A stretch of 64,000 nt of DNA from Phyllosticta citribraziliensis (lineage: Eukaryota). Below are positions 4,901 through 28,253 of this stretch, piece after piece. The stretch spans positions 1,364,001 through 1,428,000 of the forward strand of contig NW_027117344.1 in NCBI RefSeq assembly GCF_038025025.1, written 5' to 3'. The notes below the pieces were generated by a model. That model saw nothing but the letters and a program-made list of their open reading frames with translations. It had not been told where the DNA came from and searched no databases. The translations under genes and the position numbers were made by a program. The stretch's first letter is position 1. Every line of letters starts with the position of its first letter.

Positions 4901-7149
4901 TGGTCATTCAGCTGCGGTCGTGGGCACACGGATGGAAAGGTAAAACCTCGTGTTCAGTGTTGGCAATTGTTGCTTACACGCCTTCATGCATGCGACACTG
5001 GTCTGTCCGAAACAGATCTCGGGACGCGATGCTTCCATTGCTTGGAAGACTTCGGGGTCGCCGAGCTCTGATCCCGGTCCGTACTCGGTATAGGCATCCC
5101 CAGGCGGCTTTGGGCATGGTCTTGTACCCAGAGGCAACGATTTCAAGACTGTCCTGAAAGCGGGCCAACGGCCGCTAGGAGGGTTCGGTACGGACTTCTG
5201 TGGTAGAGTGTGGCAGTGTCGCAGGATTTCTCGCCATTCAACACGACGTCCAGGTATCTATTCTGGCTGTGTATTCTCGAATATTTGCGGCGGTCGTTCC
5301 GTGTTTGCGTCCAACCCCGGTGCGCATCCTTGGGTGCGGATCCTTGGGTGCGGAGCAGATCGACAGGTGCTTCCCGGCGCTTTCCTCATCTTTCCGGTTT
5401 CCAAGGAAAGCCTCGCACTTCCGTCAAAGGACACTGCAATGTCGACAATCGAACTGGCGGACCTTTCCATTATTACAGTACACACGTTGATGAGCCCAGA
5501 TCGTGACGGTGAGCCATCCCTCCCCTGTTTATCTATCAGCAAACCAATCTCAGGCTGGAGAAGGTGTACTGTACATGTTCAAAGCCTCCCCGCCGTAACT
5601 CGCCAAACTACTCTGCGCCTTGCTAGCTTCTTACGGTATCTTTAGGGCGTGGCACTGGTTTTGCATGTCATGTTTGCTCCAGAGTCTTCCGCATCTCGCA
5701 GGGACAGTCGTGGCCGCGAGTTTAAGGTTACTACTTCAGTTAATCGCTCGAGTTGAATAGCCGGTGAGGCTGAAAACAAGGCTTGATCTTCCGTCATGGT
5801 ACAAAGCGAGTGTGTTGGGCGTTTCGCGTGGCTGATGAAAGTTAGTTTAGCGACAAGGCTTCTGCCAACGACAGGGATATCCATGAAATAACGGCTCGGT
5901 GGTGCAAGACTTTAGAACTTCGGAAGTCGAGTTGGAAGACCGTTGCCGGTCCGAACGGCTTCGTGGCCTCGAAACAAGGACAATTTGCCGCATCCTGCAA
6001 AGTGTTGGATCACAGGCATGACGAAGGCACTGTTTACCGTGATGCACTGCCTGCTAGCCCGGCGCATTATGATGCCCTTTTCGGCTTCGCCTCCTTTCTA
6101 TCGATTCTTCAGCCGTCCATTTCTTGTTCACTGATCGAAATGTGAGAGTTTCAATCCGGATACGTCCCGTCGAGGCGTTGCAAGGAAAAGCGACAAGGAT
6201 CGCTCGTCTTCTGGCTCGAACAAAGACAGCGATGATGCGTTCTTCAACCAGGTCGCTGTTTTCCAACTCTAACAGGCTTTCGGTCCAGCTGCTCCTGTGG
6301 CCTTGTCCACAACCTAAAATAGAGAGTTGTTTTTCGGGCCCCGTGTTGGTAAGTTGTGGCTGCTCGATAGTGATGGATGTGCAGGTGACGACACTGCAGG
6401 CCCGCGACTTCGCCCGCTATCTACTCCCAGAACAGGGTCGTGTGCGGCCCATCCATGACTTTATTTTTAGGTACAGGGAGAACAGGGCCTTGCTGCAGTC
6501 GAACACCCGTAGAACATCTTAAAGCACGCCATTGCAGCGGTCTTCATGTTTCAGTACGAAGCAAACCGGTCCTCTCAATTCTCGCCAATTATAATCTGCT
6601 CAAATCCCGCGTCTGGGTGAGGGTGGAGTTGAAACGATCAGCAAATTCTTTTGTCGCATTTCTCATTTGCGGTTGCATCAAAGATACCCGGGGCTTTTCT
6701 TAGCAGTGTTAACATGTTGCCAAGTCTCTACGTTGGTGTGAGTATCTCTACAAGATCCAAAGCCAAGTTGATTCAGCTGATGTTCCGAGAACAGGCTCTT
6801 TTAGGTGTAGCAGTACATTATGTAGCTGCCGCAGGATTTAGGACTGTTGGGTCGTCGGGCTGTACTGCGCAAATGGTGTTCCTCCAACCATTCACCGACA
6901 ACGCAATCTTCCTGGACAACTACCACCCAAACTACGGAGGACCTGGTGTCAACCTTCAAACTGGAGCACACGCACCTGACGAATATGTCTATGATGGAAC
7001 CAAGACTTCAGTGTTCAGCACTAAATTCAATTGGCGGACTGCAGCTTTGTAGAAGCTCAAACCCAAATCTAACACCTTTTGCTCTGCCGGAGCATTCTTT
7101 CCCGATGGCACTTTGATGAACCTTGCCGGAGCAGAACCTACTGCCAAAG

Positions 7150-10100
7150 GGCCGCCACTTTTCTGACACCCCTTATACAATTTCTGACACCTCCTCTACA
7201 ATTACTGACACCTCCCCCCCATAATGCCTGTGGCGCCTGCTATAGCACTGATAGCTAGATATTTAAAGTTATAATTACCTTGCTAAATTAGGTAAATTGT
7301 ATATAACTTATAATATTAATTCTATCTATATATCTATCTCTCTATATTACTTACCGCTATAAGGACAGTTTTAGATATAATAATAATAGTATAACTTTCC
7401 TACCTTATAAGGCTAAAGCGCGCGGCCTTACTACTATAGTAGCTACTAAGTAAATAGGTCTCTAGCTTTACTACTCTAAGGTCCCTTATTAGTATCCTCC
7501 TCTTATAATAATAGAATAGGCTTATACTTCTAAATCTCCTTCTAGTACTTCTACTTATACTCTTATACCCTCTTAACTCTATAGTTATAGATATTATAAG
7601 TAAAGTAGTAATACCTTAGTAGTATTATATACTAGCTATATTAGCTACTTTACTCTTCTAGCTACTCTTCTATCTACTCTTCTATCTACTCCTACTCCTC
7701 TATCTACTCCTCTACCTACTCTATTTAAATTAGTAGTTATAGAGAGGTTAGCTATATATACTTCTATTTCTCTACTATAGTAGCTCTAGCTATAGTTTAG
7801 CTATTTATTTAGTATTAAAGGTACTACTCTAGAGTAAAGTTACTATTACTATTAGCTTATATATTCTTATCTACTTATATATTCTTATCTACTTATATAT
7901 TCTTATCTACTTATATATTCTTATCTACTTATATATTACTTTCTTTTTTATCTTCCTTATCTTCCTCCTCTTTCTTATTACTACTAACTTTAACTATATT
8001 CCTAGTAGTATTTATATAGCGCCTCTTTTTTAACTTTTACTTATCTACTATAAGAGAGAGAAGTATATTAAGTAACTCTTAGATATCTAGCTATTTTATA
8101 GCCTTCTTAGTTCTTTTTAATATAACCTTCTTTCTCTTTTAAATAGTACTTTATATAGTATCTTCCCTTTACTCCTCTACTTTAAACTAAGATAGCTATT
8201 AGTATATATTATTTCTTAGCTAACTATATTATCTAATAATATATACTAGGTCCTAGATATAGCTATACTCTCCTAGTAGCTATAGATAGATAGAGTTTAC
8301 TAGAGATAGAGAAGGAGTTATACTACTATATTTAATAAAAGTAGTATATATATACTTATTAGAAGGGTAAAGGTACTAATATAGATTAATATTATAGAGC
8401 CTAACCTGCTATTTATTATTATTACTAAGTACTTAATAGATAGTATAGATATAGATAATACTATATATTCCTATAAAGTTAAGAGAATAGATATAAGTAA
8501 ATTATTAATCTTCTTCTAGTATATACTCCTACTTTATAAGTCTTATTTAAGTAAGGAGTAGATTTAGAGTAAAGTATAAAACTTTCTCCTTAACCTTCTA
8601 GCTAATATTTAGGTCTAACTTAATAGAGTATATAGTATAGCTATACTCCTTACTAATTTATTATATAATCTTTATATACTTATTAGCTATAAATACTATA
8701 ACCTTATCCTTAACCTTTAAGAGATTACTAGTAGATAAAAGAAGATATAATTTAATATAGTAATAGGTACCTTTAAGCTTTAAAGTAATAGTATTTCTAT
8801 AGTATTAGTAGTAGAATATCTAGATAGTAGACTATTTCTCCTTATATAAAAGCTACTCTAAATTAATATAGTTAATAAGGATACTAAACTCTATATTATA
8901 ATTAGCTTAAAACTTAGCCTAGTATATATTAAAATTAGCTTTATTCTTAATATATATAAGATTATAGAAGTAGCTTTAAAACTTCTTTTACTTTACTCTT
9001 AATTTATCTTACTCCTTAGGCTCTTATTAGCTATTAACTTACTAAGCCTACTTTATATAAACTAGGATATTTTTAAGGATATACTATATATAAAGAAGCT
9101 AAGAGATATTAGAGAAGTAGATTCTAAGAGCCTTCCTTAAAGTATCTTCTTTATTAGTAAGAAAGAGGTATACCTTATCTTTAATTTTATACTAATAGAG
9201 TAGATCCTTAAAGAACTAAATTATAGTATTATATATAGGTTCTAATTTATTAGGAAGGAAGTAGATACTAATAGTAAAGACTAAGTTAGTATAAATAATA
9301 CTAATAATTTAGAGGAGTAGTATATTATACTTATTAATTTTATAAGTAGTATCTATAAGGATTACCTCTAGCTAGTACTAGAGAAGAGAGATAGCTATAA
9401 TATATATAAAGAAGAGGATATAAACCTACTATATATTATCTAGTTAGTAGAGAACCTACTACTTATCTTAATTAGCTTTTAACTTATTAAGTAGAGCCTA
9501 TATAGTAGTCCTTCCCTAAAGCTATTTAAGCTTATACTTATACTTCTTAAAGTAGATATTACTAAGCCTAATATATAGATAACTAAGAGAGGGATTATTA
9601 TAGATAAGTAGCTAGATATACTTTATTAGTATACCTTAGTTAAAAAGGCGGCGTATTTATATTATAACCTTAAATAACTACTTCTAGTAGGTAGTATAGG
9701 CGCTTATATTAATAAAGTAGTTATATACTATCTTAATATAGTATATATTACCCTTATTATTAGGTGCATTAACTACTTATATATAGCTAGTAATAGAAAT
9801 AAGGATATCCTATTCCCTAGTAGTATCTTTATTAGTAGTCTAGTTATTATTAGTAATTATAATAAGGTGCTTATAGTAATAGCCTTTAATAGAGGTATAG
9901 TACTTAGTTACTTTAGAATTATACTCTTTATAGTAATTATAGTATATCTAGACCTTTATAATATAATCCTTCTTCTTTAACTTCTTTAAATATAAGATAT
10001 AGTAGGCGTAATTATACTCTTTTAACTAGGTAATTAAGGTATCTTAGGCGGCTTTTTAGGTGGTATATACTGACTTAGGTGGTAGTATAAGTAGGAGAGA

Positions 10101-10665
10101 TTCTAGCGCGCCTTTATTACTATTAGGTATAAAGATATAGTTAAATAAGGCAGCGGCACCTTTAAAGGCTTTACTTATTACTTGCTTTATACCGCGCGTA
10201 TTAGGTGTAGGGAGTGTAAGTAATACCTTACTAATTAGGTCGCTGGCTTTACTAAGAGTAAGGTCTTATTCTAGTAGAGTACTATAGCTGTGGCTGCGGC
10301 TGTAGCTATAGCTATAACTATAGCTGTAACTATAACTATAACTGCTATATTTACTACTACTATTACTCTAGGGTGGCATTATTATAAATAGTTAAGAGGT
10401 AAGAGGTAAGAAGTAAGAGGGAGAGAGGGAGAGAGGGAGAGAAAGAGAGGGAGAGAGTAGTAGTAGTAGTAGTAGTAGTAGTAACTAAGTACTATAGAGG
10501 TAACTAAGCACTGCTAAATTAGGTAGTTAGTAAGCTAATTAGTAGCTGGCGTTATAACTTTAAATATCTAGCTATAGGCGCCGCAAGTAATTATAGGGGG
10601 GAGGTGTTAGTAATTATAGAGGAGGTGTTAGAAATTATATAAGGGGTGTTAGAAAAGTAGCGGCC
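7150..10665 (-). mobile_element. Mutator-like (MULE) DNA transposon, full length (3516 bp), RIP-inactivated
   Basis: TIRs of ~115-125 bp (GGCCGCCACTTTTCTGACACC.. at left, ..GGTGTTAGAAAAGTAGCGGCC at right) with three internal CTGACACC repeats. TSD TGCCAAAG 7142-7149 / TGCTAAAG 10666-10673. Minus-strand MULE motifs readable through RIP: EVILxDxTYKxNKYNxxLL (ends ~9368) and QLLCIWHILKNI-like (~9066-9103). Confidence 0.92.
7856..7937. repeat. 18-bp tandem repeat (CTTATATATTCTTATCTA) x~4.5 inside the MULE
   Basis: Directly visible. The unit length is a multiple of 3, consistent with a former coding repeat in the transposase C-terminal region. Confidence 0.85.
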
Positions 10666-11676
10666 TGCTAAAGATAGGGTTAGTAATGGCTTTAATACTA
10701 TCTATAGGTACGCCCCTAGCCCTTATACTAGAGGTAAATATACTATAGACTAGATTAAAGGTCTATTATACCTCTAAGCTAGGAGATAGTATCTAATAGC
10801 TAAAGCTCTTACTAATAGAGATATCGTGGTTATAGGAGGGTCTAATAGAGGAGGTTTAGTTATAAATAAGGTTAATATAAACGTGCCGACTTATAAATTA
10901 GTAATATAAATAGGCGTGCTACCTCTACTAGTTAAACTACTAATTCTAGAGTTTACTAATAACGCCGATATAAATAAGGCCTATAACTTATACCTAATTT
11001 ATAAGTAAATATTCTTAATTAGATAAGGTATATAACTAACCCTTTTATAGTCGCCCTCCTTTCTAATAAGGTAAATACTAATAAAGTATTTACTCTAGCT
11101 AGTAATATAGCTGTTATCTAGAACTATAAGATGGATAAATTAGTTAAGACGCTTCTAGATACTCCTAAGTAGGCGCGTAACTTTCCTTCTTCTTTAACTA
11201 CGGTCCTACTACCTCTTTTAGCTACAAATAATTTTAAACCTACGATCCTGCTCTATAGTAGCAGCTCTAGTAATAAACCTGTGCCTAAGACCCTAGATGA
11301 CTACTACTATATTAAGCCTTATACTATAAATCTAATATAGGAGCAAGTTAATAATCTCCCTAATAGTAGATAGGTTATAATAGACTCTATCCTTCTTCCT
11401 AATAGCAAGGTGCTTTTTATTAACGGCGCGTATACTAGCTCTATAGGTAGTTTTATAGTAGACGACCTAGTTATAATCCTACTTATCTACGACCTAGCTA
11501 AGCTAGTTAGCTTACGCTTTATACTACTTCCTAAAGTTACAATCCTATAGATGTACCACTTAATCGCGTAGCTGCTGCTAAATAGGGAAGTATTAATCGC
11601 CAGCTCTAACCCCTTAGTTATATATAATAAGGGTGGTAAGGTCTTTAGTAACTGGCCTAACTTTAATAATAATAGA

Positions 11677-11943
11677 TGATAAAGTAAGATAAGAGAACTA
11701 AAGACTCTATTTAAGGCTACTCTAAGAGCTATCTATATACTGCTAAAACTACTAGGGGGAGTAGTAGCTAGTACTAACTACTAATAAGTCCTAAACTTAT
11801 TAAGATATATAAAGCTAATAGATAAGTATATCTTAACTAAAGTAGTAAGTTATTATCTAGATAAGCTATAGTTATCTAGGTAAACTATAGCTAAGATGAC
11901 GCGATAGGAGACTACTTAGTATTATTATATAGGACTACTAATA
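11677..11943 (-). repeat. Copia LTR (3' LTR of the minus-strand element), fully RIP-mutated
   Basis: Same length as 24848-25114 and aligns without gaps; differences seen are C>T and G>A. Confidence 0.93.
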
Positions 11944-14625
11944 CACCCCCTAGGATAAGAAAAGAGATAGTTATAGTAGAGTAGATATATAAGTAGTTAT
12001 ATTAACTAAATAGAAAACTTACTATATTAGTCTATACCTAATAAGGTTATAAAAGCAGTGGTGCTTAACTATTACTAATACTTTAGTAAGCCCGTCTATA
12101 ATTATCTTATTAGTAGAGATATAAGAGATAGTTACAGTTCTATCTATAACTGCCTACTTAATATACTAGTAGTATAGATTAATATGTTTTATAGTAGTAT
12201 TAAACTCTATACTATTAGTAAATTAGACGGCGTTCTTATTATTATTATAGAGCTAGATTAGTTAAGTATTAGGGCCCTTATAACCTATTTTAGTAAGAAC
12301 TTAAGTTATCTAGATAGCTTATTTAATAGTAGGAGTAAGGTTAATAAACTTAGCTTCTATTATAGATATACTAATAAGCTTCTATCTCCTACTCTTTATA
12401 TATAGTAAACCGCCTAAAGCCATGATAATGTAGCCTAATAAGGACTAATAAGTATCTAGATTATTAGTAAAAGCAGCATCTATATGGATTTATAAGCTAA
12501 GAGTGCTATTATTACTAGGGTGTAGAATGATTCTATAATTATATATACCCTATAAGTATTAAAGGACTTAGTAAGTAGTAGTAAGGTGTTTATTTAATAG
12601 GTTATAGGTATATTATAAGAGATAAGTAGTAGGGAAAAGAATAGCTAGGTGGCATCTTATTATATACTATATAAGTAAGCTAACAATCTTACTATAAAGC
12701 TATTAATAGTCTAGGTCGTTCTTGCCATTATACGCGCGTAATTTATAGGAATCTATTAGTATAAGGACGCGCGTAGTATTACTTATACTAAACTATATAA
12801 GAACGTTTTAAATATATCTACCTTAGAATAGTATAATTGTGCTATTTATATATTAATTAATATAAAGACTAAGGAAGTAATATAGTCGGCCTATATCTTT
12901 AAAGTAGATCTTAGTATTAAGTAGTGAGATAATTTTATTAACTTTAGACTTAGTTTTAGTAGTAATATAGAGATTATTAATATAGATAAGAATAAATATA
13001 AGCTTATCCTAGTATCTTATAATATAGGGTTCTAAAGGGAGAGAGCAGAAACCTAGATAGTATAAGAAATTATAGAGGTACTAAAACTAAGTAAGTAGTA
13101 ACTAGTATAAGCTATATAAGGCTCTTTAGAGATGCTAAACTTATTATAGGACCTGGTATCTAGGAGGTATATAGGTATAGACTAGGTCTTTTAGTAGTAT
13201 ATTAAGGAAGGCTATCTTAATATCCCCTTACTTATAAAATAAGTAATAATAGATGTTAATTACTAAAAATAGTATAAAAGTAGGAAATATAATAACTAGT
13301 AATAATACTTTAGATGTATTAAATCCCTTATATTAAAGATTACCTAAAACTATAACGCGGCTCTTATAGATAACCTTCTTACCTAGCTTATTAAGCTTAT
13401 AGACCTAGACCTATTATAGTAGTAGTACCTAAGAGCTATCTAATAGGTAGTTAGTCTCTTTAAAGGTACTAGTATTAGTTAACTCCTATATCTACTTATC
13501 TATAGAGGGTCTCTAATAGATAGATTTTAGCCCTATAAGGGCCTTATACTATAAGTAAGGTAGAACCTTATTAGTAGGGATGGCGTCTTATTAGTAATAA
13601 GTAGTATTTTCTATAGTAGTAAAGGCGCGTATATAGTAAGTAGATAGTTAAGGAGGTTAAGCATTATCTAAACTATATTTCTTATTAAAGAATTATATCT
13701 TAGTATGAATCTACTAAGGGTATTATAATAGTGCTATTAGTAGTAGAGTAGGTATAGGTAATAGAGATAGTAAGGGCGGTAGTAGAGTTAAAGTTAAGTT
13801 AGTAAGTACTAAATTATTAGATCTAGCGCATTTATTAGCTAGAGAGATATTAATCTAATCTATTTTATCTACTAATAGTATAATGTCTATAAACGCGTCC
13901 TCCTTACCTCTACTACTAATATCTATACTACCTATATTAGACCTCTCTACTACTTTAATTGCTTATTCTACTATATTATAGATTGCTTTAGTATTGCCTT
14001 TAAGAGTGTCTTAAACTGTTTTTAATATAAGATGTATAATAAGTGTCTTATTATTACTATTCTTAACTTTTCTATCTTCTATATTATTTATAGTAGCTAT
14101 TAAGTCTAGCTACTAAGGAGGTCTAAAATATATGTCCTAAGTATAGATAACCTAGTTTATTTAAGGGAGATATACCTAGAAGATATACTTATAGTTATAG
14201 CTAATAAACTATTCTTTCTCTACTCTTATATTAAATTTAGCGCTCTTAAGATGCTTCTTAGCTAGGATATAAGTATATATAGTAATACTAAAGACTAGTA
14301 CTAGTAACTAGACGTCCTTATACCTACTAATAGTATTATTAAAAATATTAACTAGTATCTTGCTATTAAGTGCGCGAGTGGGAAGATAGTTAAGAAGATA
14401 TACTATATATTAATAGGCTTCTATCTATAATAATTAAGGCGTATTTAACATGATACTTATAGAGTAGGCCATACTAGTAATAAGGTATATAGATAACTTA
14501 CTAATACTATTTTACTTAGGTAAGTATAGTGCTATCTTTTTAACCTTAATACCCTCTATCTTTACCTATACTAGTAGCTTTTAGCTGCTAAACTCTATGC
14601 TATTATCTATTTAGAGGGCTTAGAT

Positions 14626-15048
14626 TATTACGATAGGCGTATACGCGCCTATATAAGTACTAGGGCCAGTATAGATAAACCTAGTATTGCGCGGTTATAA
14701 GAAGCACAAGCCTCACCTTAGGTAGCAGCCTGCTATAGCTTAGGCTAAAACCTGCAGGCTGGTACTAGCTACTACAGCCTAGTACTAGCCACTATAGCCC
14801 TAGGTAGATACTATATAACAGCCTATTAATACCTTACCTTTATAACTTACCTAATAATAACTAAGGACCCTTATATAAAGGATAAGAGATAGAATAGTAT
14901 AAAGGAAGGACTAGGAAATATATAGGTAGTAAGTATCTTTTATATTTTATTCTTTTAACTTATTAGATTTAATTAAGATATATATATATTCTCTAGTAGT
15001 TTACCTTTAGCTCTTACCTATATAATAAGAAATCTATAAGTTATAATA
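14626..15048 (+). repeat. Gypsy 5' LTR
   Basis: Direct repeat of 22447-22869, same length; TATAAA at 14898-14903. Confidence 0.93.
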
Positions 15049-18000
15049 GATATAAAAGATCATTCTAAGTTTTAGCTCTATCCTACTTCTTTACCTATAA
15101 AGGTGTTATAATATTTGACCTAAGTAATATTATATATAGCTATAGTCTTATATAAGACTACTTGTTACTTTTCCCTAGTAAACCTAAGTCATCTTTATTA
15201 GGCGCATTGGTATTATCTAAGGACTAAGGAGTATTAAGTATATATTAACTATAGAAGTCTTTAGTTAAGGCTATAGGGTAGTATATAAATATTTAGGAGG
15301 TATCCTATCTATAACCTGCTTAAGGGACATTCTAAGTAGAAGACTATAAAGATAGTATAGCTAAGAATAAAGCTAACACATCTAGTACTACTAAAGGTGT
15401 TAGTACTAGTTAATTAACCTAATAAGATTCGCGTAAAGGAACTAAAGATTCGCGCAATACTAGATACTTATTAAATAATAATAAGAGAGGACCTACCCCT
15501 ATTCTCCTATATAATTTCTACTTAGTCCTAGTAGTAGAGGTAAAAGAATGTACCTAAGACCTAGGGTTAACTTATACAGTTTAAGCTCTAGTTATAGAGG
15601 CGTTTATAAAGGTACTATACTTAGATATTAATTAATTTAAATCTAAGATTGCATCCTTAAACAAGTCTTAAGTATAGTAGTAACTAAACCGCGCATAAAG
15701 GCAAAACTAGGCTCTTAAGTAAATACTCTTAAACTATACTAATAGACTTAGGGAAGTTCTAAGGGAAGGATATATTAGGCCCTCTTTATTAGCTTAGCAC
15801 CTAAGACCTATTACCCTCTCTTAAGATCCTTCTACTAGTAGAGTTATAAGGACTCTTAGACCTCCTCCTAACTATATAAGGGAAACTACTACTAAAACCT
15901 CTACTTTATCTTTAAGTAGTAAGAAATACTAAAGTAGTAAGGTTCCTAATCCTCCTCTTCTTACTAATAGAGAAGACCCCTTATATAAATACTAGACCCT
16001 CCTTATATAAAATAAAATTAAACAAAACCACAATTACTTTACTAAAGATATAGTAGAGGAGACTAAATAGAATATTACAGGTTATATTATTTCCTATATT
16101 AGTAGAGAAGTCTTATATTACCTAACTCCTTTTCTTACTTCTTATATAAAGGCTAATAAAGTTACTCTAGATAAGGATATCTTTAAATTCCTAGATAACC
16201 TCCTCTAGAGTCTATATAAATATAAGGATATAAAGAAGTAGTTATACTCTCTTATATACTGTATTCCTATAGACCTTTAGAAGTTTTAATTAAACTTTAT
16301 ATAATTAGCCTTAGATATAGATCTTCCCTAGGAATAGTAAAAAGAGGACTTTTATAATATAATAGATCCTCTCCTTTAAACCTATATAGTTACTATAGAG
16401 TAAGATAGGGATATTAACTTTTATAAGTACCTCTAATAAGCCTACCCTATTGCTTAAAGTCTTAGTAACTACTATTCTAACTATAGAAAACCAATACTCA
16501 CGTCGCGTAAGGAATAAGTAAAGAAGAGATAATAAGAATAAGTAAAGATAACTACCTTAGGCGGTATAAGTACTTTATCTTCTAGTCATGCCTAGGCGCG
16601 ATCTATATCTAGGGCTCCCTTATATAATATAACCTATAAAGGCAAAGTAGAAGTCTATATAGAGAGTAGACTATATAATTACTATAGCTAGTTTAGCTAT
16701 TTATAGAGATAATGCCCACAACCTAAGATAAAGGCAATAGAGTTAGTTAAAGAAGAAAGTACTAAAGATGTCTATATAAATAAAGGAGATTAGTCTTTAT
16801 TAGAAAATAATAAGGCCTAGGTAAAGTCTCCTACCTTAGGTCTAAACTTAGAGTAATATATATTAAAGGTTCTTATATAAATCTTAGTTACTTTATTAGA
16901 GGTGTACCCTTTACTATATAAACCTTAATTATATCTAATAGCCGCGCCTTAGAAATTTATACCCTAGCTAATACTAGTACTAGTAGTATAAGTTTTATTC
17001 ACCCTAAGCTACTACTAACTCTCCAGTCTATAGGTGCTATAAAAAAGAGAATAATAGGTAAAGGGCTTAATATTACTAGGTTTAACTAATATATAAATAA
17101 GAAAGTTAATTTTTACTTTTATCTTTAACTCTACTTCTAGGATTAAATAGTTTCTACTTATACTTTTATTTATAATATTGGCCATAATAACATAATTCTT
17201 AGGCGATAGTTTTTTAACTAGTACGATGTTCTTCTAGACTATAAATAATATAAACTAGTCTAGAGATAGCTACTAGTTAACTAATCCTTTTAGTATCTTT
17301 TACACCTACTAAAAGTCTCTATGTAAAGTAATAAACCACAGAAAGAACATTAAGTAGATATAGACTATAGAGATAAAAACTTTAATAAACGCCTTCTTCC
17401 CTTAGTATAGGTTATTAAGGGAATTAAATTTTAAACTTAAGATGCTTTTAAGCTTTCTATCTATAAAATATAAGTTATGCTAATAGAGATCTATACTATT
17501 AACCTTATATAAGTTTAAGTAGCTCTTAAAGATAAAGAAACTGAGGAATTATTAGCTTCTAAGCTACTAGCTACTTATAAGGAATTTTAAGATGTGTTTT
17601 CTAAAATAGAGTCTAATAAGCTACTACTATATCGCGTAGGGGTTAATTATAAAATATCTCTTATATATAATAGTCTACTAGAGCTTCTACCTAGTCCTCT
17701 CTATAGAATGTCTCTAGAGCAGCTTAAGGCTATAAAAGAGTATATTATTAAGAACCTTTAGAAAGGCTTTATTACTAAGAGCTTTACTACCTATACTTCT
17801 CCTATTCTTATAGTAAAAAAGCCTAGTAGGGGATGGAGATTTTACGTAGACTACTAATAGCTTAATAAATAAACTGCTAAGGATTTACACCCCCTTCCTC
17901 TTATTATAGAGTTGCTTTAGCGTGTTAGAAAGGGCAAAATTTATACTAAGCTTGATATTTAATAAGCTTTCTACTATATTTATCTTACTAAGGATTCTAA

Positions 18001-20659
18001 AGATAAGACTACCTTCTATATAAGATATAGCTTATTTAAATACTATATCTTGCTATTTAGATTAAGTAATAGACCTATAGCCTTTTAATATTTTATTAAC
18101 CAGGTTCTCTTTAAGTATTTAGATAATTTTATTATAGCTTTTATAAATAATATGCTTATTATCTCTAAAGACCCTACAGAGCACAAGGAATAAGTAAAAA
18201 AAGTACTAGTAAGACTATAAAAAGCAGGACTATAGGTAGATTTAAAGAAGAGTAAGTTTTTAGTTACTTATATAAAGTTCCTTAGATATATTGTTTCTAT
18301 AGAAGGCATTTAGATAGACCTAGATAAGGTAGAACCTATATAAAACTAGCTAATACCTAAAACCCTTAAAGCTCTTTAATCCTTCCTAGGTTTCTATAAT
18401 TTCTACTAATGATTTCTCCCTAACTATAGATAAATTAGCTGGCTATTAGAGAAACTATACTCTAAGGCAAAATAGTAACTACTAGGACCCCTAGAAGAGG
18501 AGGCAATTTAATAACTTAAGAAGCTAATATATAGTGATATACTTCTAGCTAACTATGACCCTACTCTTAATACTTATATAGAGACTAATATAAGTAATAG
18601 AGTTACTATAGGCATTTTAATGCAGCTCTAATAACCTTTATATAATTAGAAACTAGTAGCGTTCTACTCTAAGGTAATAGCTGATGCAGAACTTTATTAT
18701 AGAATATCTAATAAAGAACTGCTAGCTATTAAGAATAGACTAGAAGAATAGAGACTAATACTTATTAGCCTTAAAAAGCCTTTTCTTATAATAATAGACT
18801 ATTAGGCATTAGAGTACTACTCTACTAAACGACAACTTAATTAATAATAAGCTAGATGGTCTAAGTTTTTTATAGAGTTCCACATATAATTCTCCTATTA
18901 GCTAGGAAAGGAAAATATCATTACTAATTACCTTACTTAAAAATAAGAAGACCTAAAGACTTAAAAAGAAAAAGTAAAGGCTATATAAGAGATATGCCTT
19001 ATCCTACTAGAGACTATTATCCCTCTTTCTATTTTAGAATAAGAACTTCCTTCTCTAGTATTATTTTTAGATAAACTTCTCTATATAAACTAAGAAGATT
19101 CTAAATTAGAACTCTAGAGATAGAAGGCCCTCTTAAAAGACCTTAAATAAAGAAATAGTTAGGAACTAAAGGATGGTCTTTTATTATAATATAGTACCCT
19201 CTTTATACTAGATTGTGATAACCTCTATATAAGAATGCTTAATACTTTATATACTACCTATATAACTGCCTATCCTAGTATTATAAAGATGCGAAAACTC
19301 CTTAAGTAATATTACTACTAGCTAGCTATAAATTACATAATTAATATTTATAGGTAAGGATGCTATATTTGCTGCTAAATAAAGGAGTTTTATAATAAAG
19401 ACCTAGGCCTTCTATAACTACTAGAGATTCCTACTCGACCCTAGTAATACTTAGCTATAGATTTTAAAGAGATGCCTAAGGACTAAAAAGGCTATAATAT
19501 AATCCTAGTTATTATAGACTAGTTAAGTGGAAGAACCTTTAGCTTGCCTTATATAAAGAAGATTAATACTAAAGGAGTCTCTAGGCTTTTTTATAAATAT
19601 ATCTACTATATTTATAGAAACCCTAAGTCTATCCTATCTAACTAAGGCCCTTAGTTCATCTTAGCGTTTATAAATAAACTATATAAGCTAACTAGTATAG
19701 AGTAGCATTTTAACTTATCCTACTACTCTTAAACTAATAGTATTATAGAGATTGTTAATTAGCATCTTATATAAAGATTAAGACCTTTTATTAATTACTT
19801 TTAGAATAATTAGTCTAATCTTCTACTATTAATAGACCTTATACAAGTAACACTTCCCTATAAAGCTACTAGACTTTTACCTTTTAAGATTAAGTTAGGA
19901 TATTCCCCTTAAATATACTATAACTAGTAATAAAGAATAGAGACCCCCTAGTAACTAGAAAAGATAGCTCGTATAGTAGTATAAACACTATAAAAGAGAA
20001 GATAAGAAGCTTTTAAATTTATAAAGAATCTTATTCTTAAATCCTAAGAGTATATATACTAATAAGCTAATAAATACCGTCATGTGCTAGACTTTATAGT
20101 TAGAGATTATATCTATATTAAGAAAACTAGATGGTCTACTAATTAGCTAAACCTTAAATTAGACTTCCCTAATACTAGACCTTTTAAGATTATAGGAATA
20201 GAAGGACCCTCCTATATCCTTAATCTTCCCTTATATATAAAGATAGTTAACCTTTTCTATACTAATAGGCTATATAAGGCTAAAATGGAACAGCTTCCTA
20301 GTTAGGAATATACTAAACCTAAACCTAAGATTATTTAAGACGAGCCTAAGTGGGAAGTAGACTATATTTAAGCTAGTTAAGTCTTATATAGGAAGCTTTA
20401 ATACTAAGTTAAATAGACTAGATATAACTAAGATAACTAGTAGTATAACGTAAGTTCTTTTAGTAGTATACTATAGAAAATTAAAGAATTCCACTCATTA
20501 TACCCTATTATAGCAGGACTACTAAAAAATCTAGAAAAATAGAAGGCTGCCTTCCTCTAAGAAGAACTATAGATTAAAATAGAAAGTAATAATAAAACAA
20601 GTTACTTAGGCCTATAGTAAATATTATAAAGATATAGAAAGTAGACTGATTAGTTTACT

Positions 20660-21400
20660 ATCTACCCTTATATAAATACTATTAATCTTAACTTCTACTC
20701 TCTAGTCTCTCCTTTTTACTACTTATTTCCTACTATCCTCTTCTTTAATTTCTACCCTTTACTTCTTTCCTTTTCCCTTCTTCTTATTATAATAGTTATT
20801 ATATAAGACTATCTCTTCTAGATCCTCTAGCTTATTAGGCAGGATGTCCTACTTAGCTAAAGCCTAATTAGTTTAATCCTCTAACCTGGCTTAGTAGTAC
20901 AAGTTCTAGAACTCCTCTATATAAATTTTATCTTTATACCTCTTATAATAAGCAGGCGGCTTGGCACCCTTTAAGTTACTTATAGTATAGTTAAGGTTGC
21001 CTATACCCTAAAGGTAGTTGGCACAGCAGCCCTATAAGAAACCAGGTAGGTAGTAATAACTAATAAACGCGCGAGTATTAGTATTATCGCAACACTTAGT
21101 ATAGCTAATAGAGTTATTAATTCTAGTATACTAGATAAGAAAAGCATCGCATAAGCTGGCTTAAGTTTTAACTAATAAGTAGTTAAATTGCTAAGTAGAA
21201 ACTATAATATATAAGTAAGGCATATTATTACCTAAGGCCAAGATATACTTAGCGCGCTCTTATACTTTAGAACTACTAAGGTATACCTATATAGTTAGTT
21301 AGATAAGAATCCCTTATATTAGTAAGATAAACTTACTTATACGACACTCTCTATATTCTTATAAGGGATATAAAGCGTTAACTTAAAGTCCTACTTAATA
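20660..21400 (-). pseudogene. Relic antisense accessory ORF in the Gypsy 3' region with a Cys-rich DUF3716-like motif (boundaries approximate)
   Basis: Minus strand 21160-21005 reads SLCDAFLI*YTRINNSISYTKCCDNTNTRAFISYYYLPGFL*GCCANYL*G. Reversing RIP gives AxLIQxxG..CxKC..F..C..PG..GCCANCxW. A K/E/R-rich minus-strand tract follows at ~20700-20790. Confidence 0.55.
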
Positions 21401-22446
21401 GGCACCTTATTAGAGCTAACTAGCAATGCCACAACGCGAATCTCACTATTACTACTATTATATAAAGTAGCAGGTAGTAAGTACTTAGCTGCTAGAACCT
21501 AATAAGCTATAGGATTATAATAATAGTATATATAAGTAGGCTCTTTACCTTCTTCCTCTAAAATAGGCTGTGCGATAGCAAACTAGCAGCAATATAGCAT
21601 AATAGGCTAGTTAGTAGTAGGCTATACAGCTATAGATAATAAACCTCGCGCGATAACTAATAATACTAATTAAGTAGAACCTAATACTATAGTATACTAT
21701 AGGTAAAGTAACAAGCCTATAGCTATTCCTAGCTAAATAAGTAAAGCCTAGCCTAACTAAGTCTTTATATAAGTATCCTCCTCTATAATTATATCAGTCA
21801 GCAAGACAGGACAATAAAGTAGTAAAACCTAGATATATAATACTACTTAACAGCCTAGATAACAATTAGTAATAGTTAGAGATAGAATTAAAGTTTACTT
21901 ACCTTAGGACTCTATATAATAGTCCTTATAGATACTACTAGCTAAAACAGCTCTCTAAGTAAGTAGCAACTATAACAGATCGCGAACGACGCCATATAAT
22001 AATAACTTAATACTATAACTCTTATATAATAGTAATAAGTCCTAATAGACTAGACTATAATGAGTAGTAGATATATTAAGTATATAGCAGCCAGGAATAT
22101 CTACTTTACTATTAGTAGGGTATAAATCATTTAAATTATTAGAACCTTTATATATAATAGTTAGTTTACTAGATTATAGCTAAATTAGACTAGGGCAATA
22201 ATATACTTTAATAGAGAGCTTTAGATATAGCTAAATAAGATAGCAACCTTCTATAGGTCGCACAGTAAAAGAGATAGTAATAGAAAGAGATAGTATAGTA
22301 GTAGACCTAGACTAATAATTATACTTTATAACTATATAGAACGCTTAAATTACTAAATTACTACTATTATATATTATAAGTCTGCACCTATATAAGCGCC
22401 TATAGCTACTAATTCCTATAATTTTAGCTTCTCTTTAGGGGGGGCA

Positions 22447-22869
22447 TGTTATAATAGGTATATATATACCTATATAAGTACTAGGGCCAGTATAGATAAA
22501 CCTAGCATTATATAGTTATAAGAAGTACAAGCCTCACCTTAGGCAGCAGCCTGCTATAGCTTAGGCTAAAACCTACAGGCTGGCACTAGCTACTATAGCC
22601 TAGCACTAGCTACTATAGCCCTAGGTAGATACTATATAACAGCCTATTAACACCTTACCTTTATAACTTACCTAATAATAACTAAGGACCCTTATATAAA
22701 GGATAAGAGGTAGAATAGTATAAAGGAAGGACTAGGAAATATATAGATAGTAAGTATCTTTTATATTTTATTCTTTTAACTTATTAGATTTAATTAAGAT
22801 ATATATATATTCTCTAGCAGTTTACCTTTAGCCCTTACCTACGTAATAAGAAATCTACAAGTTGTGACA
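22447..22869 (+). repeat. Gypsy 3' LTR
   Basis: TG...CA termini, preceded by the polypurine tract and followed by TSD TAGAT. Confidence 0.93.
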
Positions 22870-24847
22870 TAGATCTTATATTAGAACTAGGTTTTAGTCT
22901 ATTTACTAAAGTTTTAAATACTATTAAAGGCGTCGCCCTTAGTCTTTATAACTAATAAGTATTATAGATATAAGTAGTCGTCTATAAATACCACCCCCTA
23001 ATAGCAGCTATTATGGCTGACTATAAGTGGTCTAAATATATTAATATAGACGCGTCTAAAGGGCGCGTCTGCTTAAGGTATTAGTTTATATAATACTATC
23101 TAGTAGGACTTAGCTATATAGCAGGATTTATAATAGAAGTCTTAGTTACTAGTAATAATAAGTTATCCCTAGTACTAGAGCTTATTAAGTATACTAGTAT
23201 AGACATACCCTAATTACTAGTACCACGTCTTATATATCGCTATAGGAGGAGTTACTATAGTAAATACTTATACTATATAATTATTATTAATAACTATTAG
23301 AATGTTCACCCCTAAACTATTAGAGTAAGCTATAATAGCTGTTCTATAGTTTTATATTTATAATATAGAGGTAAGCTAATCTAGGTATAGTCCCTTCTAC
23401 TTAAGTTTTAAAGCTAAGATAAGACTAACTATTAGTACTAGAATATATAGAACACCCTCTATTATAAGAGTATTAACTATACTATTTATAGGATAGTAGA
23501 GTATGGCGTTGCTATAGCTAATAGCTATTACTATACCTAAACTGTATACCTAGACTAGCTGCGCGAACTATAAGTAGTTTATTAGCTTAGTTAAATTTAG
23601 TATATAGTAGGTATTAGCCCTAGTATTAACAATCTATTCATCCTTTATTAAAGCTAGATATAGGTATAGGGTAGTAAAGTAGTTCGCGCCTTATACTAGA
23701 GGGTTAGTTATTAATATTATTATTACTATTACTACTATTAGTAGTTTAGAGACTTAATTATCTAGTATATAGAATACCCCTAATACTAGCTTCTAATAGG
23801 TGGGATAGTATTTAAGGTAAAGATAGCTATACTTAGCCTTAATATACCCCTTCTTTCTATAGTAATTATAGGTAGCACAGTTAGACTTAGACTACTTAGT
23901 AGACTGCTAACTAGTATAAATAGTAAGAGCTATAGTACTATTCTTACTAGTATATTTAATCTTATTAGTTATAGTATAGAAGAGATCCTTAAACTTAGGC
24001 ATCTCCTTCTTATTATACTAATTTATATACTAAGTTATATACTAGATAGGAATATCATCTTATAAGTTTTCTAAAAGTAGAATATAGAGAATCTAGTCCT
24101 TAACTTACTATTAGATATAGCTAATATAGGCTTACCTTTATTTATATAGGGCATTATAGAATTCCTTTACTATTATAAAATTACTATATTAATAGAAGAT
24201 AAAGTCCTTAATAATATTAGCCTTAGAGAGGATACCCTTAGTATTATATATATTATAAAGCTTCTACTATATAGAGTAAGCTAAACTAGTATACCCCTAT
24301 AGTACTATTATAATAGGAAGTATAATAATTATTATAAACTAGTAGATAATATATATATCCTTCTTATAATTAGTAGCATTTTTTAGCTTATCCTTAAGTA
24401 GATAGGCATAATAGAATAGACTAAGCCTTATCTTAACTATTATCTTAAAGGTTACCTAGTTAGTAGGGCCTTTAAGTAGCTAGATATTCTTTAAAGGGAT
24501 ACTAAACTTACTATTATTTATAGTTAGGTCTACCTCTTCTTTAGCCTTAGCCTACTTAGCTAGTATAGAAGATAAGGCAGCAGTAAAGCCTAAACTACTA
24601 GATAATAAGGGAGGAAGGGAAGGTAAAGTTATAGTAAAGATAATAACTATTAGTATATTACTTAGAGTTATAGAGATAGATAATACTAATAAATTTACTA
24701 AAGAGTAGGAATTATATAAGATAATAAGGGATAAAATAATAAAATAATAAAATAACTATTAGTAATAATTATATAGATAGTATTATAGTATAACACTAAA
24801 ATAAGCTAGATAAGCAATTTATATATGTAATATAAGGGCTTATAACC

Positions 24848-25114
24848 TAATAAAGTAAGATAAGAGAACTAAAGACTCTATTTAAGGCTACTCTAAGAGC
24901 TATCTATATACTGCTAAAACTACCAGGGGGAGTAGTAGCCGGTACCAACTACTAATAAGTCCTAAACTCATTAAGACGCGCAAAGCCAACAGACAAGCAC
25001 ATCTCAACTAAAGCAGTAAGTCATCATCCAGACAAGCTACAGTCATCCAGGCAAACTACAGCTGAGACGACGCGATGGGAGACTGCTTGGTGTTGTTACA
25101 CAGGACCACCAACA
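24848..25114 (-). repeat. Copia LTR (5' LTR); outer part largely escaped RIP
   Basis: Ends ..GGACCACCAACA and retains CpA/CpG sites that are TpA in the partner LTR. Confidence 0.93.
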
Positions 25115-27173
25115 ACGGACATCGCTCGTTTCTTCAGCAGCAGCAGCGCAAGGACTCGTCGTTCCCGACCGAGTACCGCGTCGAGATCTTCACTCCCGAT
25201 TATGCCGAAAATCCGAACAGGCCCAAGGTCACTCGCGCTCCGGATGCGATTGCGTACGGCAAGACGTTCGATGTGGCGACGAATGCGCAGGGTCAGGACG
25301 TCGTGGTCAGATTGTTTTCGCCGGGCTTCCACACGCACGCGATTTCGATGCAGCAGAGGATGGTGGAGCTCGAGGTCAAGAAGGGCGCGGGACAGGGCGC
25401 ATATACCGTCACTGCGCCGCCGAGGTCCAGTGTCATGCAGGCCGGAGTTCACCTCCTGTTTATCGTCGTAGGTGGTGTTCCATCTGAGGGTGTCTGGGTT
25501 AAGCTTGCGTGATTGGGCATCGTATCCGGTTTCCCCTTGTTTTTCTTGCTTGCATAAGAATCAGTCAGCCGGTGCATGCATGCATGGCATTGCGATAGAT
25601 GGAGTAATTCAAAGGTGTAGACAGATAAATACCTCCAATGTTCAGATTTCGAGTCGAACTGTTCTTTCGCTGCACTGCAAATCATGCAAGTCATTTTGAC
25701 TGCAACTACGGCCCAAAATTCGGCATTCCACTCACATCCGCTCGCGAACCTTTTGCGGCAACTTCATCAACTCCCACAAACTCCAACCCTGTTGCCGCAA
25801 AATCCTTCCGTTTCTTCTCCCGTCCAAACCACTGACGCAGCCTCCCACTCACTCGCGCATGCCGCGTCAACGACAACGCCGACGACGTCGAGGCGCGGAT
25901 AAGCATGTCGATAAAGAACGCAAACACACTCGCGTCGCCCGAAACTCTAAAGCTACTTTTCCTCGTGGGCGCGTTCGGCAGCGCCTGGGTACAGATTTGC
26001 CGAGCTAAAAGGGCAAACAATTGGGCCAAGCTCGTTTTTTCAAAGTTTATGTCGCGCTTTGCCGCTTGTCCGCTCGACCGCGGTTTAAGGATCCGGGTGC
26101 TGGGGCGTGTTTGCGGAGGATATTACTGCTTTAAAATTTACTGTTTTTTGTTAAAACAATACTCGTAGACAGGTAAGAGACGGAAAATTGAACTGGAATG
26201 GGAAATTTTGGAACTGAAAATGGCCACTCCAGCTAATAAGTCATGCTCCACCAACAGCCAAGGCAAAGGCAGTAAGGGCGGCCCGAGACTCGTCACCCAA
26301 ATACGAAGGCGAAAAGTCCTGACCTGTTTTTGTCTGCTCTTTGTCTACTTGTCTACAGAGTCGATAAAAAGGATGTACGCAAGAGGTTCCGGCGGACCGA
26401 GACGGAGACGGGTCACACAAAAAGGTATTGCGTTTAAGAAGCGAGGACCGAGTGGGTGGCTTGAACGACTTCCACCCCTCTTGCGGGCATGAACCGGCTG
26501 TGGATATCCGACAGCTAAGCTAAGCGGGAGGGCAAAGACGAGGGCAGTGGCGTGACGCCAATAGCGTTGCTTGGTTGTGAAGAACTGGCTGTCGAGAAGG
26601 TTCGTGGCTTGCTTGATTGGATGTCTGCGGACGTCTTTCTTCTATAAATTGTCAATTAGCTCGCTTTTTGATTCAGGGCGTCTCTATGAAGCCAACGTTC
26701 GAATGCGCGTTGGTCTGTCCGAGCTCTGAGTCAGGCTTTTTGCAAACGCAGCGGTAATGGGAAGGATAACAAGCAGTTGGGTGTAGGGAGGCCAAGACAG
26801 AGACGTAAGACGACATGGATCTGGATGGTGCAGGAAACAGCGGTATTAGTATGCCCAGGAAGCAAATGGTGAGGCCGAGTCGACCCCACCATCTCTTGGA
26901 ATAATTGCTTTGGTTGCCTTCGTACTCACTCTTGCGGCTGCCCTGATGCTTAGTTTTGTACCGTCACAATCGGGAATCAAAAGAAGGGGCTTGGTTTGGC
27001 CCATACGAGTGTGAGTTCTTTGACAAGACTCTTGCGTGAGACGCGCATTCAAATTTTGAGCGTTGTAGCTAACGAATACTCGGATATTTTACAGATTCGC
27101 AGTGGACCTGTCAAACATTTGAACTTCCGAACCACAGTTTGTACGGGCAAGGCATGAAGAGAGTCAGGAGCGC

Positions 27174-28253
27174 TCACCCCTTCAGCGCCTGCACAATGTC
27201 CTTGACATCCTCATCCAAGCTCTTCTCCTTCAAACCAAGGCGCTCGTTCCAGGTAGACTCCCAGCGGCCGTATGGAGTCGTCTTGGACAGAGTCGCAGCC
27301 AAAAGGAGATCTGTGACAGTGCTGTAGTCGCCCTTGCCCAGAGCCTCGTAGACGGTCTTGACGCGTTGCTCGCCGTTGACCTCTTCGGCGACAGTAAAGG
27401 TCTTGCCTGTTGCCTTCTCCAGCGCCGCCTGGATCTCGTTCTGAGTGACCGAGTGGCTCTCAATAAAGACGTACTTGTTCGCGCTGTCGTTGTAGGCGTC
27501 GGGCTTGATCAGAAGGTTGACCAGTGCGCGGCCAATGGTTTGCAGGTTGGTCGCGCTCCAGCGCGTCTCGCCGCCGTCCCAACGACGCACCTTCGCGTCG
27601 GCAATGTTGAAGCCCAGGAATCCGACGTTCAGGCCCCAGTCAAAGAAGGGGCCCGTGATCAAGCTCGTCCAGCTGATGCTGTCCTGCTTTGTCTCCAAAT
27701 ACTCGGCCGTTTTGCGCTTGCCCGCGAGGATGGGGACTAGCTCGATGACTTTCGGGTCGGACGTGTTGCAGCCGTACTCCGTCGGGATGAAGCGCTTCAC
27801 ACCGGCCGTGATGGCTGCGTCAATGATGGGAGTTTGCGCAGATGCGTCGCCCACCAACGAGACGATGGCGTCGGTGGAGGCGGTCTTGAAGACAGATGCG
27901 AGAGCATCGTGGGTATACTCGGATTGGACGGTCTTGACGTTGGGACTTGGAGGCGATGTCAGTATTTGGAAAGAGATGGGCATGTGGTTGTCAGAAGGTG
28001 TGATTGTCATGGAAAGTTATGGTCATAGGGCGTGGTTGTCAGGGGGCGTCGGGGACGTACGGGAAAGTTGACTTTGAGCCGGAGCGCGTCAGAACGGTGA
28101 CATTGAGCGAAGAGTCGAGGAACTCTTTGAGAACCGCCGGCCCGAGGTTTCCGCCAGCCTGTTGGAACGTTTTAGCTTGGTGTTTGAAGAAGTTTATGGA
28201 GGTTTGAAGCTACTTACGCCAACAAGGACGACGTTTTTGATCGGAGAAGACAT
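27174..28253 (-). CDS. NmrA / isoflavone-reductase-like NAD(P)-binding oxidoreductase (~301 aa)
   Basis: Exons 28253-28218, 28158-28061 and 27945-27174. Rossmann motif VVLVG|AGGNLG, AGVKRFIPTEYG, TGPFFDW. Confidence 0.9.

Follow-up and report, generated by a model that had tools for sequence, protein, structure and literature searches.

RIP mutation of a glyoxal-oxidase pseudogene piece enclosed between a MULE and a Copia element in Phyllosticta citribraziliensis

A glyoxal-oxidase gene in the window (the whole 64-kb stretch of DNA that was analysed) is broken into three pieces by two transposons without similarity to each other, and the 1-kb piece enclosed between them is saturated with RIP, whereas the two outer pieces are clean. 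GC content is 50–60% across the window except for one block at ~7.2–24.9 kb, where it is 0.22–0.37. On balance we favour, with moderate confidence, the reading that a transposon nest underwent RIP in place and that the enclosed, probably unique gene piece was mutated along with the repeats by linker-type spread.

The identity of the broken gene rests on comparison with intact relatives. An open frame at 25066–25509 matched PF09118 (galactose-oxidase-like E-set, E = 7.5e-27), and its best relatives were full-length glyoxal oxidases from Phyllosticta citricarpa (P0001, 85%) and P. capitalensis (P0002, 80%), both of which carry PF07250 and PF09118. When these two proteins were used as tblastn queries on the window, aa 1–126 aligned with 6714–7148, aa 125–235 with 10667–10999, aa 235–443 with 11047–11673 and aa 442–574 with 25111–25509. 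Identity was 80–91% in the outer pieces and 59–62% in the middle piece, on whose mutated sequence PF07250 scored 28.8 bits (E = 9.1e-7), under the 37.5 cut-off. Given both families and colinearity with aa 1–574 of P0001 and P0002, the gene is a glyoxal-oxidase (copper radical oxidase) pseudogene, which we take to fall in CAZy class AA5_1.

All three pieces are read from the plus strand. The 5′ piece (6714–7149) covers aa 1–126 with an intron at 6738–6794 and a single stop, and is 91% identical to P0002 by tblastn. The middle piece (10666–11676) covers aa 125–443, contains 10 stops and begins and ends with the inner copy of a target-site duplication. Because the reading frame changes between the two middle tblastn alignments, a 50-nt intron was placed at 11001–11050 of the plus strand, with the acceptor TATAG and the donor ATAAGT at 11001–11006, as the original prediction had read it. 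The 3′ piece (25115–25512) covers aa 443–574 plus the stop codon in an open frame, and is 85% identical to P0001 by tblastn. Thus the MULE entered after codon 126 and the Copia element after codon 443, and the target-site duplications together with the colinear pieces identify both events as clean insertions into one gene. This anatomy agrees with the original prediction, which had outlined a host gene trapped between a MULE and a Copia element: its interval of 10674–11676 coincides exactly with the part of the gene that the two inner duplications enclose, its other coordinates were right, and both transposon identities were borne out by Pfam. In DNA of normal GC content, ~1.7 kb beyond the 3′ end of the pseudogene, there is a 280-aa open frame on the minus strand (27174–28016).

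The MULE DNA transposon (7150–10665, minus strand) was identified by PF10551 at ~9069–9365 (E = 1.2e-7, 32.5 bits, cut-off 27.6); no Pfam family was matched in its plus-strand frames. Its TIRs align over 76 nt ungapped at 91%, or over ~125 nt with gaps. The left, outer TIR (7150–7225) is clean and the right, inner TIR (10590–10665) is RIP-mutated: of 10 CpA/TpG sites present in the left TIR, 7 have been mutated in its right counterpart, none is changed in the opposite direction, and all 7 differences between the pair are transitions. The element is bordered by an 8-bp target-site duplication, whose outer copy (7142–7149, TGCCAAAG) is unmutated and whose inner copy (10666–10673, TGCTAAAG) shows one CpA>TpA change. 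Within the MULE, 7826–7951 and 10400–10484 contain an 18-nt tandem array (~6 copies, overlapping), a GA-rich stretch and an (AGT)n microsatellite. GC skew runs from −0.35 at 7001–8000 to +0.31 at 10001–11000, at opposite ends of the element, a flip that hints at either strand-biased RIP or the GA-rich low-complexity tract. In the MULE body (7326–10589) just 26 CpA/TpG dinucleotides are left in 3264 nt, and (CA+TG)/(AC+GT) is 0.08, compared with 0.19–0.29 for the LTR elements; this stronger depletion suggests that the MULE either went through additional rounds of RIP or was degenerate before it was mobilised.

The second insertion is a Ty1/Copia-type LTR retrotransposon (11677–25114, minus strand), in which RVT_2 (PF07727, E = 6.2e-10) was found at ~12763–13404 by a Pfam scan of the element apart from its right-hand body (22864–24847). 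Its 267-nt LTRs, with TG..CA ends, lie at 11677–11943 and 24848–25114; the left LTR is RIP-mutated throughout, and the right one is clean over its last 191 nt. The 5-bp target-site duplication reads ATAGA in its mutated inner copy (11672–11676) and ACGGA in its outer copy (25115–25119), so that at both insertions the outer copy of the duplication is intact and the inner copy mutated. Nested within the Copia element is a further LTR retrotransposon (14564–22863, plus strand), which its RVT_1 (E = 3.1e-16, ~17813–18289) and RT_RNaseH (~18491–18880) domains mark as Ty3/Gypsy-like. Its LTRs of ~480 nt are 88.8% alike, and all 24 differences in a 300-nt core are transitions. No similarity between MULE and Copia was found when the block was compared with itself by BLAST, whose sole matches were the two TIRs and the LTRs of each retrotransposon. 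Many variant contigs from four public sequencing runs match the Copia LTR part of 11673–12000, and contigs from two organisms, coded A and B, include Copia LTR variants with G or C where the window has A or T. From these variants it follows that the Copia family has other copies, less-mutated ones included, and that it is also present in a second organism.

The TIR, LTR and target-site-duplication pairs serve as before-and-after references for the chemistry of the changes and fix the block edges with a precision of a few tens of bases. The two Copia LTRs differ at 39 positions, all by transitions, and the left copy carries the T or A in 38 of them. When the clean part of the right LTR (24924–25114) was compared with its counterpart in the left LTR (11753–11943), every CpA/TpG site was found changed (31/31), as were 4 of 6 CpG sites, with no change at CpT (0/11) or CpC (0/8). 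The middle gene piece shows the same signature: 103 of its 114 inferred changes now read TpA, and 22 CpG are retained. By the usual thresholds RIP is marked by a high TpA/ApT, a low (CpA+TpG)/(ApC+GpT) and a composite index above 0, and the middle piece has values of 2.01, 0.23 and 1.78, respectively. As the changes are transitions only, are specific for CpA and carry the indices past these thresholds, the middle piece has been mutated by RIP; the RIP nature that the original prediction had assigned to them is thus borne out by the CpA specificity of the paired repeats.

Mutation by RIP forms one continuous AT-rich block (7250–24923), delimited by 50-bp bins, 500-bp indices and comparison of the TIR and LTR pairs. 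In 500-bp windows TpA/ApT was 1.5–2.8 throughout the block versus 0.26–1.17 outside, and (CpA+TpG)/(ApC+GpT) was 0–0.42 versus at least 0.97. Sliding-window RIP indices, which the original prediction had proposed as a check, separated the two compartments completely: the composite index was at least 1.28 in all 33 of the 1-kb windows inside the block and exceeded 0 in none of the 89 outside it (maximum −0.11). Expressed as TA/(TA+CA+TG), the transposons reached 0.88–0.97 and the middle piece 0.89, and the outer gene pieces with their surroundings 0.14–0.21 (0.20 for the 5′ piece and 0.14 for the 3′ piece).

Both edges of the block are abrupt and lie inside the outermost repeats. On the left, RIP sets in at ~7226–7250, ~75–100 bp within the MULE; on the right it ends at ~24924, ~190 bp within the right Copia LTR. 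Here the analysis goes beyond the original prediction, since RIP falls short even of the outer ends of both transposons. No enrichment of TpA was detected in the ten 100-bp bins beyond the block on either side. The outer MULE TIR and the outer 191 nt of the Copia LTR are clean and their inner twins are mutated, and outward leakage is therefore essentially nil, though it may not be strictly zero.

The three gene pieces were compared codon by codon with the two orthologous proteins, a test to which synonymous changes are invisible. In the middle piece, 203 of 320 codons equal a relative, 109 differ by C>T/G>A changes alone and 8 differ otherwise; the 109 codons imply at least 114 nucleotide changes. 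The 5′ piece (118 codons) gave 112, 4 and 2 in the same categories and one stop, at 7050, whereas the 3′ piece (133 codons) gave 122, 2 and 9 and no stop. Codons with RIP-type changes only were thus far more frequent in the middle piece than in the outer pieces (109/320 versus 6/251; Fisher p = 1.6e-24), and other codon differences were not (8/320 versus 11/251; p = 0.24). Because the two regions differ in RIP-type changes and not in the others, the excess is attributed to RIP and not to general decay. C>T/G>A changes alone explain 109 of 117 amino-acid differences in the middle piece and 6 of 17 in the outer pieces.

The 10 stops of the middle piece fall at Trp positions in five cases (10751, 10787, 11119, 11170 and 11338), at Gln positions in four (10775, 10907, 11371 and 11569) and at an Arg position in one (11548), in line with the many TAG and TAA codons at Trp, Gln and Arg that the original prediction had noted. 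That prediction had further held that the 3′ piece looked unmutated and that the 5′ piece contained a few candidate changes, and both observations stand: in the 3′ piece only 2 of 11 amino-acid differences are compatible with RIP, and the 5′ piece has the TAG at 7050 and AAA at 7023 where P0001 and P0002 have Glu. The TAG (7050–7052) replaces an Arg of both relatives and requires two transitions in one codon. Three of the four RIP-compatible changes of the 5′ piece cluster at 7023–7061, within 127 bp of the MULE; this cluster may reflect either slight leakage outward or ordinary decay, and the TIR in between is untouched.

Once the gene was broken, selection was lifted from all three pieces alike, and the locus works as the internal control within one gene that the original prediction had seen in it, with a saturated enclosed piece set against clean outer ones. 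Comparison of each fragment with intact orthologues, likewise proposed there, places the excess of RIP-type changes in the middle piece only, and the claim that RIP acted far more strongly between the repeats than outward is upheld by the codon counts above. Taken as a whole, the interpretation offered there is supported in part.

Distance from the repeats does not account for this asymmetry. Across the middle piece, TA/(TA+CA+TG) was 0.77–1.00 in every 100-bp bin and neither fell nor rose toward the centre; of the 24 surviving CpA/TpG sites, 9 lie in the central 400 bp, where ~9.5 were expected. Inside the block, DNA up to ~500 bp from the nearest repeat is saturated, and outside it DNA only 1–436 bp away is clean. 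Since like distances give opposite outcomes, simple distance-dependent leakage fails to explain the pattern.

Whether the middle piece was unique when RIP acted bears directly on how it came to be mutated. Self-BLAST revealed no second copy of the piece in the 64-kb window. In a protein search with the middle region, the only Phyllosticta entries among the best 120 of 646 matches were the two orthologues, and the next matches within these 120 came from other genera at no more than 66% identity; with no further Phyllosticta match among them, an old paralogue is unlikely. Duplication of the whole gene was considered as a cause and ruled out, the outer pieces being clean. Weak as these indications are, the middle piece was probably unique DNA when it was hit. 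For the assembly itself, a 201-nt contig of run X1 equals 10990–11190 with 0 differences. The four public runs searched are small (each at most 0.17 of sampled words, three with only 3–4 million letters), and over 10500–12000 they leave most of the gene piece uncovered and yield no contig across either junction.

In the sequence of events that we favour, an intact glyoxal-oxidase gene received two precise insertions, the MULE and the Copia element, the latter also carrying the nested Gypsy-like element. During later sexual cycles the multi-copy transposons would have triggered RIP, presumably in repeated rounds, and CpA sites would have been mutated over one continuous domain. The 1-kb gene piece between the unrelated repeats would have been driven near saturation by spreading, "linker"-type RIP, while at the outer edges RIP would have faded over ~75–190 bp inside the repeats, so that the equally neutral outer gene pieces escaped.

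Measured against the two known classes of such spread, the locus fits in part. As in leakage, the middle piece directly adjoins RIP-mutated multi-copy repeats, with the MULE on one side and a Copia LTR on the other; mutation density does not fall with distance, although saturation may mask a gradient. The flat profile lowers membership in the leakage class, not the mechanism itself. As in linker-type RIP, DNA between two close repeats was mutated, on the assumption that this DNA was unique, and the flanking repeats are not homologous to each other. What speaks against spread is that the density in the middle piece equals that in the true repeats without declining toward the centre, as it would in a direct target, and because saturation has erased any distance gradient, leakage and direct targeting look alike in the mutation profile.

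A direct target is accordingly the strongest rival, although we regard it as rather improbable. It would require that the segment ~7250–24923, or a smaller part of it with the gene piece, was present in at least two copies when RIP acted; the extra copy could have arisen by segmental duplication or been carried to another site, and it may have been lost since or lie in a part of the genome beyond the window. Such a history would fit a gene piece that is mutated evenly and as densely as the transposons, and also the sharp block edges inside the transposon ends, where the end-points of a duplication would lie. Those edges need no duplication, however, for according to 10.1101/344036 RIP itself is expected to spare the ends of long repeats. 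The window, moreover, holds no second copy, and the pieces are exactly colinear through the target-site duplications, which makes this copy the original locus. The clean outer pieces exclude a duplication of the whole gene, and the index of the MULE body (0.08, versus 0.19–0.29 in the rest) points to element-specific RIP histories and not to a single duplication.

AT-rich blocks of this kind are heterochromatic in other fungi, and the enclosed gene piece might have lost its cytosines without any RIP, by slow vegetative deamination of methylated cytosines in heterochromatin. The piece does sit in an AT-rich block, and its excess changes are without exception C>T/G>A. Yet the adjoining LTR is strictly dinucleotide-specific, with all 31 CpA/TpG sites changed and none of the 11 CpT or 8 CpC; in the gene piece 103 of 114 changes end as TpA and 22 CpG persist. 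A context-free process predicts neither this dinucleotide pattern nor saturation to the level of the repeats, and we consider it very unlikely. Chimeric joining of an unrelated RIP-mutated sequence into the gene during assembly has nothing specific in its favour beyond the general difficulty of assembling AT-rich repeat nests, and is hardly credible given target-site duplications that match at both insertions, a reading frame that resumes codon for codon, complete TIR and LTR pairs, and the independent 201-nt contig identical to 10990–11190.

In-place RIP with linker-type spread thus remains our preferred reading, and its interest lies in what it says about reach. RIP that spreads into unique DNA is believed to hasten the evolution, or the loss, of transposon-embedded genes, effector genes included, and in most natural cases selection acting on the gene confounds the picture. 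The present locus provides three pieces of a single dead gene, all of them neutral, and therewith a selection-free reading, and its value is as a clean illustration of how far RIP extends. A more general rule may be entertained tentatively, namely that any unique DNA between two repeats, even unrelated ones, is saturated, and that the outer edges of the domain halt short of the repeat ends and spare equally neutral DNA; this rule, which rests on one locus, we find doubtful but possible. If it were true, linker-type RIP would need no pairing between the two flanking repeats, and the locus would be natural evidence from outside Neurospora for a DIM-2-like heterochromatin-domain arm with a hard outer boundary.

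So-called "AT isochores", extensive AT-rich regions shaped by RIP, are reportedly a feature of Dothideomycete genomes, as is said of the work of Rouxel and colleagues in 2011 and of OcculterCut. The 18-kb AT-rich block resembles them in its sharp GC boundaries and its nested RIP-mutated transposons, and differs in standing alone within a 64-kb window whose remaining DNA is 50–60% GC; what sets it apart is the piece of host gene that it encloses.

Leakage of RIP in Leptosphaeria maculans is also said to have been treated by Fudal and colleagues in 2009. According to Van de Wouw et al. (2010, PMC2973834), RIP in this fungus leaks into the single-copy genes AvrLm6, LmCys1 and LmTrans and the non-coding regions NC3/NC4 beside degenerated transposons. 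The farther a sequence lies from the repeat, the less it is affected, in a gradient that spans a few hundred bp, and Southern blots established that the sequences are single-copy. Both cases come from Dothideomycetes and concern sequence among RIP-mutated transposons with CpA-type changes and premature stops. The gradient in L. maculans runs outward, however, whereas here the enclosed piece is saturated without a gradient and the outward flanks are clean. Single-copy status, demonstrated there, is only presumed here, and the gene described here was already dead, so that selection could not shape the pattern. For Phyllosticta, a search of open-access text yielded no description of RIP leakage; of six papers that mention both the genus and repeat-induced point mutation, the one with the genus in its title has the term in its reference list only.

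A further close parallel is the linker RIP of Neurospora crassa. As described in a preprint (Gladyshev & Kleckner 2017, 10.1101/115501), unique linker DNA between repeats is mutated there mainly via DIM-2, and the heterochromatin-related DIM-2/DIM-5 pathway has an even stronger CpA preference and reaches adjoining single-copy DNA. Repeat-linker-repeat constructs and the DIM-2/DIM-5/HP1 pathway are also the subject of Wang et al. 2025 (PMC11969663). In long repeats, according to 10.1101/344036, RIP declines over terminal boundary zones of ~150 bp and is raised at ends adjoining the linker, and the clean outer and mutated inner TIR and LTR ends of the present locus match this boundary-zone pattern. 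Both systems show C>T changes with a strong CpA preference between close repeats, across a linker of 0.6–0.7 kb in Neurospora versus 1 kb here. They differ in the flanking repeats, which in Neurospora are copies of each other and here are a MULE and a Copia element without similarity, and in the outer flanks, which here are clean and in Neurospora are moderately mutated, with a "moderate level" of DIM-2-dependent RIP given in the preprint by Carlier et al. (2021, 10.1101/2021.04.05.438447). RIP of unique DNA beside and between repeats is thus already known, and the locus described here is a new example of it and not a new mechanism.
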